Positions 1-4,583 of a stretch of DNA of 4,583 bases are shown one piece after another. The first letter of the stretch is position 1. Every line of letters starts with the position of its first letter. A model generated the notes under the pieces. It did not search any database, was not told where the DNA came from, and saw only the letters and a list, made by a program, of their open reading frames with translations. Origin of the DNA: a virus (lineage: Duplodnaviria > Heunggongvirae > Uroviricota > Caudoviricetes); IMG/VR virus record IMGVR_UViG_2698536337_000009. One strand, given 5' to 3'. The position numbers were made by a program, and so were the translations under genes.

Positions 1-30
1 ACACTAAATCAGTAAGTTGGCAGCATCACC
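1..30 (-). mobile_element. IS1 terminus (left inverted repeat end); the element body lies left of the window
   Basis: Positions 1-30 are the exact reverse complement of the first 30 nt of IS1 as I recall it (GGTGATGCTGCCAACTTACTGATTTAGTGT). The 23-bp IRL occupies 8-30 and the element boundary is at 30/31. Confidence 0.85.
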
Positions 31-77
31 GAAGTGGTAAAGAAGATAATAAAGAATAATATTTAGGGTTATAGGTC

Positions 78-293
78 TTAGCCCATTTTGAAAACAAAAT
101 ATGCTACTATTGCACTTAATATGAAGGAAATGAATAGAAATATAGATGTTGATGTTTTTAGATATTTTTCAGGAAATAATGGGTGAGCAATAATGTATAC
201 AAGATTAAGTAGTATATAAATTGCTACCGGAATGAAAATCATGCTCCAGTGTGTATCTTTTTTGGGAGGGATTGGCTGCAAATAATCAGACAC
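78..293 (-). CDS. Hypothetical small membrane protein with two predicted transmembrane helices (71 aa from GTG at 293, or 54 aa from ATG at 242)
   Basis: Open frame in AT-rich DNA, where stop codons are frequent. Two hydrophobic stretches (WSMIFIPVAIYILLNLVYIIA and IFLFISFILSAIVAYFVF) are separated by a short polar loop. It lies 82 bp downstream of, and on the same strand as, the 125-aa ORF. The start is uncertain: GTG at 293 lacks a clear SD, and the internal ATG at 242 has a GGAG only 1 nt upstream. Confidence 0.4.
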   Translation of the reverse strand: MSDYLQPIPPKKDTHWSMIFIPVAIYILLNLVYIIAHPLFPEKYLKTSTSIFLFISFILSAIVAYFVFKMG

Positions 294-375
294 CGTTTTT
301 CCATCAGTTTCAAGAAGAATTACTAGATCTCTTACTTCACCACTGACTTGAGTGCATCCTTAGTAGTAATGTTAA

Positions 376-753
376 TCATTTTTTCCCTCCAAATACGATG
401 CCCTCTACGTCTTTGGAAGCTTTTTGTGATGACCACTCCTCTGAATCAGGTGATTTAATTAAAAATATTGTATCTCCATCAAAAATCGTATTTGTTCCGT
501 AAAAATTCACATTTGATAGATCACCACCAAAAACCCTCTGCCCACTCGAGGTAATTGCCTCACCTAATTTAGTAAAATTACCAGCAATAGATGATTTTCT
601 TTTTCCACTTCTATTCAAAGTGGCTTTAATTACACCACCACCATCCTTAGAGTTAAATAATTGAATGTCCACTCCAGCAGTTGGTTGTATATATTTTGAA
701 AGCTCTTTCTTGAACTTGTTAATATATTTATCTTTGTTTTCTTTGTTGGTCAT
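376..753 (-). CDS. Hypothetical 125-aa soluble protein, Lys-rich N-terminus, Gly/Ser-rich body, no Cys, no signal peptide; family not recognised
   Basis: A 378-nt open frame in a region of roughly one-third G+C, unlikely by chance. ATG at 753-751 follows an in-frame stop. Codon usage is AT-rich and consistent with the neighbouring membrane-protein ORF. The SD is weak (GGA about 10 nt upstream). Confidence 0.55.
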   Translation of the reverse strand: MTNKENKDKYINKFKKELSKYIQPTAGVDIQLFNSKDGGGVIKATLNRSGKRKSSIAGNFTKLGEAITSSGQRVFGGDLSNVNFYGTNTIFDGDTIFLIKSPDSEEWSSQKASKDVEGIVFGGKK

Positions 754-906
754 TGGTTAGATCCATAGTTCTGGCTGTGATTAGGTGAAAGTATACAAGG
801 TTTTTAAAGCGAAGATCACTGTTTTGGCTTCAAGATAGTTTTGATTTATCGTAATCAATCCGCCATAATCCTCTCATCGGAGCCTGAACAACTCCGGTGA
901 CTTCTG

Positions 907-930
907 CGCATTTAAGGGGACTTAAATGCG
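907..930. promoter_or_regulatory. Perfect hairpin/palindrome in the divergent intergenic region: CGCATTTAAG-GGGA-CTTAAATGCG
   Basis: Arms 907-916 and 921-930 are exact reverse complements around a 4-nt loop. The loop and right arm contain the AGGGGA Shine-Dalgarno and the ATG (926-928) of the small plus-strand ORF. No U-tract follows on either strand, so it is not a classical intrinsic terminator. Confidence 0.35.
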
Positions 931-1021
931 ACCACAATCTGAACTCATCACCTTGTCACAGATGCAGAAATGCACCTGCGATTTTCTGCATTCTGCGGTT
1001 TCCGTTAGGGAGGCCGTATGA
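926..1021 (+). CDS. Small 31-aa ORF, possibly ylcH-like, translationally coupled to ybcN
   Basis: ATG at 926 with AAGGGGA 5 nt upstream. Manual translation gives MRPQSELITLSQMQKCTCDFLHSAVSVREAV. Its stop TGA (1019-1021) overlaps the ybcN ATG (1018-1020) in an ATGA arrangement. It is below the ORF-track length cutoff. The position matches the ylcH slot upstream of ybcN in DLP12, but I cannot verify the sequence from memory. Confidence 0.3.
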   Translation: MRPQSELITLSQMQKCTCDFLHSAVSVREAV

Positions 1022-1473
1022 CTCTGCCAGTAGACGGCATCAAACTCCATCGCGGTAACTTCGCGGCCATCGGCCAGCAGATTCAGCCATTGCTGGATGC
1101 CGGGCAATGCTTACGCCTGCAGGTTAAGCCGTGGCGCGAGAAGCGCAGCCTGTCGCAGAACGCGCTCAGCCACATGTGGTACACGGAGATCAGCGAATAT
1201 CTCATCGCCCGCGGCAAGACCTTCGCTACGCCTGAGTGGGTCAAAGACGCGATGAAGCACACCTATCTCGGCTACGAAAGCAAAGACCGTGTAGATGTCG
1301 TGTCCGGCGAGGTCACCACCGTCCAATCCCTCCGCCATACGTCAGAGCTGGAAACCGGCGAGATGTACATCTTCCTGTGCAAAGTCGAAGCCTGGGCGAT
1401 GAATATCGGCTGCCACCTGACAATTCCGCAGAGCTGTGAATACCAGCAGCTGCGCGATAAGCAGGAGGCGTAA
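1018..1473 (+). CDS. ybcN: NinB-family protein (DLP12 YbcN-like), 151 aa
   Basis: 151-aa ORF with GGAGG 5 nt upstream of ATG. It contains a RSLSQNALSHMW motif resembling the lambda NinB RSLDQN region. Length and gene order (followed by ninE, ybcO, rusA) match the DLP12 nin region. Confidence 0.8.
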   Translation: MTLPVDGIKLHRGNFAAIGQQIQPLLDAGQCLRLQVKPWREKRSLSQNALSHMWYTEISEYLIARGKTFATPEWVKDAMKHTYLGYESKDRVDVVSGEVTTVQSLRHTSELETGEMYIFLCKVEAWAMNIGCHLTIPQSCEYQQLRDKQEA

Positions 1474-1643
1474 TGGCTACACCGCTTATTCGTGTCATGA
1501 ACGGGCACATCTACAGAGTATCAAATCGTCGTAAGCGTAAGCCTGAGCTGAAGCCATCCGAAATACCAACACTGCTCGGATATACCGCTAGCCTGGTTGA
1601 TAAAAAATGGTTGCGACTGGCAGCAAGGAGGAATCATGGCTGA
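1473..1643 (+). CDS. ninE: NinE-family protein, 56 aa
   Basis: Manual translation from ATG 1473 gives [61 protein letters not shown] lies 5 nt upstream. The start overlaps the ybcN stop (TAATG) and the stop overlaps the ybcO start. It is not in the ORF track because it is short. Confidence 0.75.
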   Translation: MATPLIRVMNGHIYRVSNRRKRKPELKPSEIPTLLGYTASLVDKKWLRLAARRNHG

Positions 1644-1926
1644 TTTGAGAAAAGCAGCGCGTGGTCGGGAATGCCAGGTAAGAATCCCTGGCGTATGTAA
1701 TGGCAATCCTGAAACGTCAGTACTGGCACATATCCGGCTGGCTGGATTGTGCGGTACCGGTATCAAACCGCCAGACCTGATTGCCACCATTGCATGTTCT
1801 GCCTGTCACGACGAAATCGACCGCCGCACATATTTTGTCGATGCTGAGTATGCAAAAGAATGCGCGCTGGAAGGTATGGCGAGAACGCAGGTTATCTGGC
1901 TGAAAGAGGGGGTTATTAAGGCGTGA
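1636..1926 (+). CDS. ybcO: YbcO-family Cys-rich protein (DUF1364-type, putative nuclease), 96 aa
   Basis: The internal ATG at 1636 is preceded by AAGGAGG and gives [32 protein letters not shown]..., matching the DLP12 YbcO N-terminus as I recall it. The Cys/His spacing suggests a zinc site. The ORF-track start at 1597 is an upstream in-frame extension. Confidence 0.8.
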
Positions 1927-2285
1927 ATACCTACAGCATCACATTACCCTGGCCTCCGAGCAATAACCGCTATTACCGCCATAATCGCGGGCGCACACAC
2001 ATCAGCGCAGAAGGGCAGGCATACCGCGATAACGTCACCCGAATCATTAAAAACGCAATGCTGGATATCGGCCTGGCTATGCCAGTGAAAATCCGTATTG
2101 AGTGCCACATGCCGGATCGCCGTCGCCGTGACCTGGATAATCTGCAAAAAGCCGCTTTTGACGCACTCACCAAAGCAGGTTTCTGGCTGGATGATGCTCA
2201 GGTCGTTGATTACCGCGTTGTGAAGATGCCTGTTACCAAAGGTGGGAGGCTGGAACTGACCATCACCGAAATGGGGAATGAATGA
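1923..2285 (+). CDS. rusA: Holliday junction resolvase RusA, 120 aa
   Basis: Protein [26 protein letters not shown]...[11 protein letters not shown] is near-identical to E. coli RusA as I recall it. The GTG start at 1923 overlaps the ybcO stop (GTGA). Its position after ybcO is conserved. Confidence 0.9.
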
Positions 2286-2422
2286 TGTTTGAGTTTTATA
2301 TGGCAGAACTTCTTCGCCACCGCTGGGGGCATCTGCGCTTATATCGTTTCCCCGGTTCTGTTTTGACCGATTACCGAATACTGAAGAATTACGCCAAAAC
2401 CCTGACAGGAGCAGGAGTATGA
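2282..2422 (+). CDS. ylcG: YlcG-like small protein, 46 aa
   Basis: Manual translation from ATG 2282 gives [46 protein letters not shown]. The start overlaps the rusA stop (ATGA). It sits in the conserved position between rusA and quuD. Confidence 0.65.
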
Positions 2423-2507
2423 AGTCAGAGATAACAATCAACTAATACTGTTTTGTTGATTTTTGCTTGTAATTGGCGTTCTGGTCTGATTTTTGTGGAG
2501 TAAGTTG

Positions 2508-2891
2508 ATGCGTGATATTCAGATGGTTCTTGAGCGTTGGGGAGCGTGGGCGGCTAATAATCATGAAGATGTGACCTGGTCGTCCATTGCCGCCGGTTTT
2601 AAGGGATTAATTACTTCAAAAGTAAAATCTCGCCCGCAATGTTGTGACGATGACGCGATGATTATTTGCGGGTGCATGGCCCGTCTGAAAAAGAACAACA
2701 GCGATTTGCACGATTTATTAGTAGATTATTATGTAGTCGGTATGACATTCATGTCACTGGCAGGTAAGCATTGCTGCTCTGATGGTTATATCGGGAAAAG
2801 GTTACAGAAGGCTGAGGGCATAATTGAAGGGATGTTAATGGCATTAGATATCCGGTTAGAGATGGATATCGTTGTTAATAACTCTAATTAA
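2508..2891 (+). CDS. quuD: Late-gene antiterminator Q homologue (QuuD), 127 aa
   Basis: ATG at 2508 with GGAG 7 nt upstream. The protein [26 protein letters not shown]... with a Cys cluster ([13 protein letters not shown]) matches DLP12 QuuD as I recall it. The ORF-track start at 2493 is a TTG extension. Confidence 0.85.
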
Positions 2892-2908
2892 TATGCCAAT
2901 TGTTTACT

Positions 2909-2943
2909 AAAAATTATTAAAAATGGGGCGTTGCAACGCCCCC
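2909..2943 (-). terminator. Rho-independent terminator on the minus strand (likely nmpC/IpeX terminator)
   Basis: An 18-nt perfect palindrome GGGGCGTTGCAACGCCCC (2925-2942) is followed, on the minus strand, by ATTTTTAATAATTTTT. On the plus strand the hairpin is followed by CAAAAATAAA, so it is unidirectional. Confidence 0.5.
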
Positions 2944-3079
2944 AAAAATAAAGGGTAATATATAACAGAAGGTTTATATAGTTAGAAGCAAGGTTGTGCT
3001 CCTAAAGGAAGTGGCTTGAGGGAGCCACTTATATGTTGGGGAGGCAAAGCCTCCCGCAACATATCTTTTAGTAATCAAA
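2909..3079 (-). ncRNA. ipeX: Structured 3' UTR of nmpC; likely counterpart of the DLP12 sRNA IpeX
   Basis: About 170 nt between the nmpC stop (3080-3082) and the minus-strand terminator carry two further stable hairpins (3031-3064 and 3009-3030). From memory, IpeX is a DLP12 sRNA mapped immediately downstream of nmpC, between nmpC and quuD. The 5' end cannot be set from sequence. Confidence 0.35.
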
Positions 3080-4162
3080 TTAGAACTGGTAAACCATACC
3101 TACAGCAACGATATCATCGGTAGCAACGCCAGATGCTTTCGTGAAATCGCTCTTATCAATCAGGTTGATTTTGTAATCAACAAAAGTGGACATATTTTTG
3201 TTGAAGTAATAGGTTGCACCTACATCAATATATTCAACCAGGTCCTGATCACCCCACGCACCCAAGTCTTTTCCTTTAGATTGCAGGTAAGCAACGGACG
3301 GACGCAGACCGAAGTCGAACTGATATTGTGCAACTACTTCGAAGTTTTGTGCTTTGTTGGCAATATGGTTATTACCAAAAACAGTCATGTTCTGGGTTTC
3401 AGAATAGGTGGTAGCCAGATAGATGTTGTTCGCATCATATTTCAGACCAGCTGCCCATACTTCAGCATTTTGACCAGATGCATTCAGGCTGTTGTTACCG
3501 TAGATAACCTGATTATTAGTGCGGTCAGATTTAGCATAGGTTGCACCTACACCGAATCCTTCATACTCATAAGTAGTGGAGAAACCGAAACCATCACCAT
3601 TAGCTTCAGTTACGTCAGTGCGGTCATTTTTACCCTGATACTGAGCAGCAAAGTTCAGACCATCAACCAGACCAAAGAAGTCGTTGTTACGATAAGTTGC
3701 AACACCAGTGGTGCGACCAGTCATGAACACATCTGTTTGAGTCCAAGTGTCACCACCGAATTCTGGCAGGACGTCAGTCCACGCACCGATGTCGTATGCT
3801 ACACCGTAGTTACGGCCGTAATCGATGGAGCCGTAGTCACCGAATTTCAGGCCAGCGAAGGCAAGACGGGTTTTATCTTTGGAGGAACCTTGAGATTCAG
3901 CGCGGTTGCCTTTGAATTCATATTCCCACTGACCGAAACCAGTCAGTTGATCGTTGATTTGGGTTTCACCTTTGAAGCCAAGACGGGCATAAGTAGTATC
4001 ACCATCATCTGCATCATTAGAGGAGAAGTAGTGCTTAGCATTAACTTTCCCGTACAGATCCAGCTTGTTACTGTCTTTATTATAAATTTCAGCTGCCTGA
4101 GCAGACATCGCCATCAGTACTGATGCAGCTACAGCAGAAATTGCCACTGTTAATTTTTTCAT
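3080..4162 (-). CDS. nmpC: Outer membrane porin NmpC (OmpC/OmpF general porin family), intact, 360-aa precursor
   Basis: The protein has a classical signal peptide ([23 protein letters not shown], then AEIYNKD) and porin hallmarks throughout. It ends in the canonical C-terminal ...VGMVYQF and closely matches NmpC as I recall it. The start is chosen at ATG 4162, at the signal peptide; the ORF-track start at 4222 is a 20-codon upstream extension. Confidence 0.9.
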
Positions 4163-4552
4163 CGTGAGCCCTTTTTTTGAACTATTATTAAAAAATGATG
4201 TCATTGCGCGATAAATATTCATCTAATCAATGTGATTATTTCAAGATGTAAGTTTTGGTTTCTCGTTTGATTTGTGAAGTAGATCTCTATTTTTATCTGA
4301 ACTTTTTTCTATCGAATCCTATTCATGGCTCTTGACTGAATAAAAATAAATCTATTAGCCAATTTATATTAACGGCTGTTATTTATAAGTGCTCTATAAT
4401 TTGAAGGTTCAATTTAAACCGGCTAAAAATAACACTGGAAATTATTTGTTGGTTATTTGTTGGGATTTGCTTATGTATTTGTAGTGGTGTTTTCAATACT
4501 CGGTAGCATTCTCGCAAATATCATTTAGTGGTTTACGTACGTAAAAAATTGG
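4163..4552 (-). promoter_or_regulatory. AT-rich nmpC 5' leader/promoter region, truncated at the IS1 junction
   Basis: A 390-bp strongly AT-rich non-coding stretch upstream of nmpC with no convincing ORF on either strand. It contains a TTGAAA -35-like element (minus strand) and an 11-bp tandem repeat at 4442-4463. The exact promoter cannot be assigned by eye. Confidence 0.3.
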
Positions 4553-4583
4553 GGTAATGACTCCAACTTATTGATAGTGTTTT
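4553..4583 (-). mobile_element. IS1 terminus (right inverted repeat end); the element body lies right of the window
   Basis: Positions 4553-4583 (GGTAATGACTCCAACTTATTGATAGTGTTTT) match the IS1 IRR and adjacent sequence read inward from the terminus. The element boundary is at 4552/4553, in the same orientation as the IS1 at the left edge. Confidence 0.85.

Follow-up and report, generated by a model that had tools for sequence, protein, structure and literature searches.

The interval between the antiterminator gene quuD and the porin gene nmpC in this prophage is densely packed with inverted repeats, which raises the question of whether it encodes a small RNA and, if so, from which strand and with what function. 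The window (the whole stretch of DNA analyzed here, 4,583 nucleotides) is a segment of a DLP12/PA-2-type lambdoid prophage. Its plus strand carries a ybcN-like NinB gene (1018-1473), ninE (1473-1643), ybcO (1636-1926), rusA (1923-2285), ylcG (2282-2422), and quuD, a Q-type antiterminator gene (2508-2891; Phage_antitermQ match, E = 3.5e-53) that is identical to K-12 quuD at 383 of 384 nucleotides. The quuD stop codon occupies 2889-2891. On the minus strand lies nmpC/lc (3080-4162; stop codon, 3080-3082), which encodes a porin of 360 amino acids. The preliminary description of this DNA had taken nmpC to be intact, and it is: the product gave a full-length Porin_1 match (E = 3e-153), and the gene lacks the IS5 insertion found in K-12 nmpC. 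The porin is 90% identical in protein sequence to Lc of phage PA-2, with the differences clustered in two stretches, and the two coding sequences are 88% identical in DNA.

Both edges of the window are IS1 sequence. Positions 1-30 are one IS1 end, and 4553-4583 are the opposite end of another IS1 copy, which has the same orientation. These end sequences occur at a spacing of exactly 768 bp in contig L082, where the IS1-segment-IS1 arrangement is also found; the window is therefore the 4.5-kb prophage piece flanked by two IS1 insertions. Positions 30-4552 are contiguous in E. coli genomes that lack both insertions. The right-hand IS1 (window 4552/4553; position 7216 of the K-12 segment, L001) lies inside the nmpC-essD intergenic region, 6 bp before a segment homologous to the post-Q sequence of 933W-type phages (presumed late promoter). 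This IS1 is flanked in L082 by a duplication of 8 bp (K-12 7209-7216), and essD-rrrD come next. At the left, two minus-strand open reading frames (ORFs) in an AT-rich stretch (78-293, 71 amino acids, and 376-753, 125 amino acids) had no Pfam match and are labeled hypothetical proteins in matching E. coli genomes. They stand in place of K-12 ybcL-ybcM-ylcH, where only 839-991 matches K-12 (80%).

The preliminary description had read positions 2892-3079 as a structured 3′ untranslated region (UTR) of nmpC, about 170 nt long and with three stable stem-loops, and had suggested folding it as a check. Minus-strand RNA from 2892-3079 folded at -69.2 kcal/mol, compared with -36.4 ± 3.7 kcal/mol for 200 dinucleotide shuffles (z = -8.85), and none of the 200 shuffles folded as well. 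A long closing helix in this fold uses bases past the terminator and would thus be absent from the terminated RNA. The RNA as defined by homology (see below) is 2917-3082 on the minus strand, 166 nt, rather than 2892-3079; it is structured and terminator ended, as had been claimed. It folds into five local hairpins, of which the last is an intrinsic terminator. The three stem-loops described earlier were all found at their positions, but there are two more. Hairpin 1 (3031-3064) has 15 pairs (8 + 7) with a bulged C at 3056 and a UUU loop, matching the 15-bp stem with one bulge of the preliminary description; hairpin 2 (3009-3030) has the expected 8 pairs, closing a 6-nt loop, CCCUCA. The two additional hairpins are hairpin 3 (2982-3005), with nine pairs and a G.U pair where K-12 has A-U, and hairpin 4 (2959-2980), the weakest, with seven A-U pairs and the loop ACCUUCUG. 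The terminator (2917-2942), common to nmpC and ipeX, consists of the palindrome noted earlier, a perfect one at 2925-2942, followed by ATTTTTAATA, the U tract at 2917-2924; the terminator scan called it on the minus strand only. quuD converges on this terminator from the other side. The minimum free energy of 2917-3082 was -61.0 kcal/mol on the minus strand and -60.2 kcal/mol on the opposite strand. Since both strands fold about equally well, folding energy alone carries no strand information.

Inspection of the hairpin loops by eye revealed no GGA motif. Small ORFs of 26 to 35 amino acids in the hairpin region overlap the hairpins and were set aside as without support. A plus-strand ORF running from inside ipeX antisense into the porin gene is annotated as ORF1 in PA-2 (L002 180-389) and as a hypothetical protein in the 434/DLP12 hybrid phage 434B (L003 3654-5062). 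The window counterpart of PA-2 ORF1 (3016-3123, plus strand) is only 35 amino acids long, which suggests that both annotations are spurious.

IpeX of the K-12 cryptic prophage DLP12 was reportedly described by Castillo-Keller, Vuong, and Misra in 2006. K-12 ipeX is placed at 574365-574531 on the reverse strand, 167 nt (PMC8313858, supplementary file 1), and a 2025 review gives the same length and the same prophage. The preliminary description had named IpeX as the likely identity of the hairpin array and had proposed alignment with the K-12 gene. Over its full length, the minus strand of 2917-3082 was identical to K-12 ipeX (L001 4366-4532) at 160 of 167 positions (95.8%), and the lc 3′ region of phage PA-2 likewise matched the window at 160/167. 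The window element begins with the T of the stop codon of nmpC, and its last base lies in the terminator U tract. In position, too, the elements agree: ipeX lies directly after the porin stop codon, on the same strand and before quuD, and it ends at the shared terminator; the gene order quuD, ipeX, porin gene is common to the window, K-12, and PA-2. Homology and synteny thus bear out the assignment to an IpeX-type small RNA downstream of nmpC. Relative to K-12, the window has six substitutions and a deletion of 1 nt. Three of these seven differences fall in the unpaired 5′ part, two in the terminator loop, and one in the loop of hairpin 1; the seventh, an A-to-G change, makes an A-U pair of hairpin 3 G.U. 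All seven are structure neutral. A search of the whole window against Rfam 15 (4,227 families, E ≤ 1) gave no match, which does not speak against membership because apparently no IpeX model exists. The minus strand of 2917-3082 is therefore an ipeX allele in a PA-2-like, porin-intact context, and the feature is already known. Its annotated 5′ end falls precisely at the stop codon and seems to have been set there by definition, not by mapping.

Conservation of the structure was examined in 120 viral contigs gathered by searching with a pattern built around the stem of hairpin 2, from which 47 distinct homologues were extracted and aligned with the window, K-12, and PA-2 (alignment A2). Under the window structure, 99.4% of cells in A2 were paired, compared with 41 to 52% when partners were slid by 1 to 3 columns. 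Both partners had changed in five pairs, four of them in hairpin 1 and the fifth in hairpin 3, a number reached in 0 of 500 shuffles. All five come from a single divergent lineage, represented by L052 and the truncated L116, so these compensatory changes are real support for the structure but may represent few independent events. Hairpin 2 was invariant in 48/48 distinct homologues; its stem was fixed by the collection pattern, and only the invariance of the CCCUCA loop is informative. One hairpin 3 pair was G.U in 15 of the 48 sequences, one hairpin 4 pair was broken in 8/48, and the terminator stem was kept in all homologues, with three G.U variants. RNAalifold, applied independently to ten diverse sequences, returned the same five hairpins, which are thus common to the window, K-12, and the consensus. 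The UTR was 94 to 96% identical between the window and L108, L113, or PA-2, while the adjacent porin coding sequence was 85 to 88% identical. In L052, conservation was highest in hairpin 4 and in the unpaired block that precedes the terminator. The L052 (5040-5205)/L116 lineage has an identity of about 80% over ipeX and 82% over the porin gene; hairpin 1 has no bulge there, the hairpin 3 loop is longer by 3 nt, and the tail past the terminator is shorter.

The alignment also bears on the strand, since 24 G.U cells would become C-A mismatches on the plus strand. The minus strand is favored as the RNA strand because of these cells, the U tract found on that strand only, the co-orientation with the porin gene, and the published minus-strand RNA.

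The element is widespread in E. coli. The region matched 2,503 of 5,426 complete E. coli genomes (about 46%) and 36 phage records, including PA-2 and 434B; phages Chlobot, PhiR34_1, and PhiR68_2 are 100% identical to it. A scan of species-representative genomes with a conserved 18-mer gave 13 matches, of which three, in E. coli, reflect real homology; the other ten extend over 18 to 21 nt only, and by our estimate about 17 such matches would arise by chance. At 18-mer stringency, no spread outside E. coli was seen among these genomes. A match to H30 that ends at window position 2955 was considered as a cassette boundary and rejected; the break is an IS5-family insertion with a deletion. Among the matches listed, PGAP-annotated genomes have only quuD and the porin gene marked here and leave ipeX unannotated. 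For the porin next to ipeX, automated annotation mostly gives the label "ompC", a potential source of error in porin surveys. The MG1655 record NC_000913.3 (574340-574528) lists micF, and ipeX is absent from it. The identification is thus a correct recognition of a published prophage RNA, and its practical value is as an annotation point.

Later papers describe IpeX as an RNA from DLP12 with a post-transcriptional lowering effect on OmpC and OmpF. The literature also reports ipeX expression in K-12 and clinical isolates and the same element in PA-2. According to the 2025 review, ipeX is transcribed from the phage porin promoter within the porin transcript and is processed from a larger precursor. 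The earlier suggestion that the RNA could be a processed 3′ UTR fragment is therefore part of the published picture and not new. In the window, a consensus scan, which misses weak promoters, found nothing promoter-like upstream of ipeX on the minus strand, and ipeX shares the terminator of the upstream porin gene. Very probably, 2917-3082 is an ipeX allele that forms the tail of the porin mRNA and lowers OmpC and OmpF in trans, perhaps by base pairing. This account draws its identity, synteny, structure, terminator, strand, and distribution from the comparisons above, and its trans effect and porin-transcript origin from the literature. With the porin gene intact, as in PA-2, transcription of ipeX would start at the porin promoter and ipeX would form the 3′ end of the porin mRNA; the transcript would end at the intrinsic terminator with its stem at 2925-2942, and ipeX may be released by processing. 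Acting in trans, IpeX would then lower host OmpC and OmpF synthesis after transcription, as the literature describes, and the phage porin would replace them.

How such an RNA might reach both porin mRNAs was addressed by target prediction, which the preliminary description had proposed for the leaders of ompC and ompF. Duplexfold of full-length ipeX with these leaders was abandoned: it ignores intramolecular structure and gave meaningless long duplexes. An IntaRNA-like script was used, combining duplexfold on 18-nt windows with opening energies from local unpaired probabilities. A pyrimidine-rich block, ipeX nt 109-132 (2951-2974, minus strand), emerged as a candidate seed complementary to the ompC and ompF Shine-Dalgarno regions; it is invariant or nearly so in A2, divergent L052 included. 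Nucleotides 109-123 (5′-AACCUUCUGUUAUAU) are predicted to form 15 contiguous pairs, one of them G.U, with ompC -21 to -7 (AUAUAACAGAGGGUU), and nt 123-132 (5′-UAUUACCCUU) 10 pairs with ompF -14 to -5 (GAGGGUAAUA). Both predicted duplexes cover the Shine-Dalgarno sequence, and both use the best-conserved ipeX block. The mirror image of this pairing is seen on the plus strand, where 2951-2974 (AAGGGTAATATATAACAGAAGGTT) resembles the ompF (GAGGGTAATAAATA) and ompC (ATATAACAGAGGGTT) ribosome-binding regions side by side.

Total predicted energies were -10.0 kcal/mol for the ompC leader and -8.85 kcal/mol for the ompF leader. Shuffled targets did as well in 6/200 and 10/200 cases, respectively, and other ribosome-binding regions in 1/237 and 4/237; both porin leaders therefore fall in the top 2% of a background that is small and consists of prophage ORFs with predicted starts. 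The ompA leader, reportedly not a target of IpeX, scored -0.35 kcal/mol (201/237 as good), and the leader of nmpC itself scored -5.2 kcal/mol (54/237). Significance against shuffles was modest, about 0.03 to 0.05 per target, and the ompF hybridization energy alone was unremarkable (110/200 shuffles). Runs of 15 pairs, with G.U counted as Watson-Crick, arose in 1 to 3% of shuffles (3/300 and 10/300). Perfect Watson-Crick runs do not exceed 10 nt, and a simple similarity search could have missed such complementarity. The anti-Shine-Dalgarno complementarity is one new lead, with statistics that are suggestive only. Tentatively, and with somewhat less than an even chance, IpeX may be an ordinary anti-Shine-Dalgarno base-pairing repressor with two adjacent modules in nt 109-132 (2974-2951). 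We infer that, if so, the block would pair with the ompC (-21 to -7) and ompF (-14 to -5) ribosome-binding sites and block translation initiation.

Three other explanations have to be set against a trans-acting, pairing RNA from the minus strand. The strongest, to which we give an even chance, is that IpeX acts without base pairing, by protein titration or an indirect effect on porin mRNA stability, and that the complementarity is due to chance. A 2013 review states that IpeX does not base pair with ompC or ompF mRNA, and the 2025 review that its regulation does not rely on complementarity alone. Sources conflict on Hfq dependence, and a third paper calls IpeX Hfq independent. The modest statistics of the 15-pair runs fit chance complementarity as well, as does the one unrelated background ribosome-binding region that outscores ompC. 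These points have to be balanced against the joint ranking of ompC and ompF, which ompA does not share, and against the placement of both duplexes over the Shine-Dalgarno sequence from the block best kept in divergent homologues; a perfect run of 10 nt is also one that earlier simple searches may have overlooked. It is improbable that the array is only the cis-acting 3′ end of the porin mRNA, serving termination and protection from 3′ exonucleases and playing no role in trans. A terminator preceded by stable hairpins is typical of mRNA 3′ stabilizers, and no Rfam family was matched, but trans repression of OmpC and OmpF is reported for the nearly identical K-12/PA-2 sequence. Moreover, the nonhairpin block 2943-2958 and weak hairpin 4 outdo the stems of hairpins 1 and 3 in L052 conservation, a pattern that is not expected of a pure stabilizer.

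Least credible, and very improbable in our view, is a function on the plus strand, either as the Q-dependent late promoter, pause site, and terminator usually found after a Q gene or as the terminator of the quuD operon. In Stx phages the late promoter directly follows Q, and QuuD is 78 to 81% identical to the Q proteins of these phages. Both strands fold equally well, and on the plus strand the hairpin at 3031-3064 is followed by CTTTTA. However, no promoter-like site or plus-strand terminator was called in 2892-3079, and the G.U pairs of the homologues would turn into C-A on that strand. The 55 nt after Q of a 933W-type phage match K-12 L001 7223-7277, between nmpC and essD, and the segment past the antisense insert of PhiR40_1 matches the same K-12 spot; neither of these segments has a match in positions 2892-4552 of the window. 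The interval 2892-3079 was accordingly rejected as a Q-dependent late promoter region, since the post-Q segment matches the far side of nmpC. A published lysis-operon regulatory fragment was cloned from upstream of the lysis genes. Because of that fragment and the matches to the nmpC-essD spot, the late promoter appears to sit past the porin cassette. Terminator, ipeX, porin gene, and promoter together make up this cassette, which is inserted in antisense orientation after Q and before the late promoter.

Antisense genes are also found right after related Q genes elsewhere: a gene for the lipocalin Blc, one for a hypothetical protein, or a porin gene with ipeX. The inserts compared here occupy 3035-3559 in phage 1H12 (L139), 2951-3397 in PhiR40_1 (L140), and 2917-4162 in the window. 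The interval from Q to the late promoter appears to be a hot spot for cassettes of antisense cargo.

The wider interest of the locus lies in the mechanism of IpeX. If true, the predicted pairing would overturn the view in reviews that IpeX acts without complementarity, and it would explain how one RNA of a phage porin cassette silences both host porins. It would also offer a prophage a simple route to swap host outer membrane porins and thus phage receptors and routes of antibiotic entry.

Among known systems, IpeX of K-12 DLP12 is the closest to the window element, with 160/167 identical nucleotides, the same position between nmpC and quuD, five hairpins, and the terminator. It differs in that IS5 within K-12 nmpC separates ipeX from the porin promoter, while the window porin gene is intact. 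The lc 3′ region of PA-2 (J02580.1) shares with the window the naturally expressed arrangement of an intact porin gene followed by ipeX. PA-2 and K-12 do not differ in ipeX; the identity of PA-2 to the window is lower in the porin (90% in protein, 88% in coding DNA) than in ipeX (95.8%).

CpxQ, SroC, and MicL exemplify RNAs that are released from mRNA 3′ UTRs, for which RNase E is the usual endonuclease, and that end at the terminator of their mRNA; they require Hfq, and their seeds are defined. Like them, ipeX uses the strand and terminator of the upstream gene, with no separate promoter-like site found, and IpeX too is processed from a longer precursor, according to the 2025 review; it differs in that its Hfq dependence is disputed between sources and no seed has been published. 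MicC and MicF, which repress ompC and ompF by base pairing, have no sequence relationship to IpeX, which is phage borne, lies within a 3′ UTR, and pairs only by prediction. Nevertheless, their targets are the same, and the predicted IpeX duplexes would likewise cover the ribosome-binding site.
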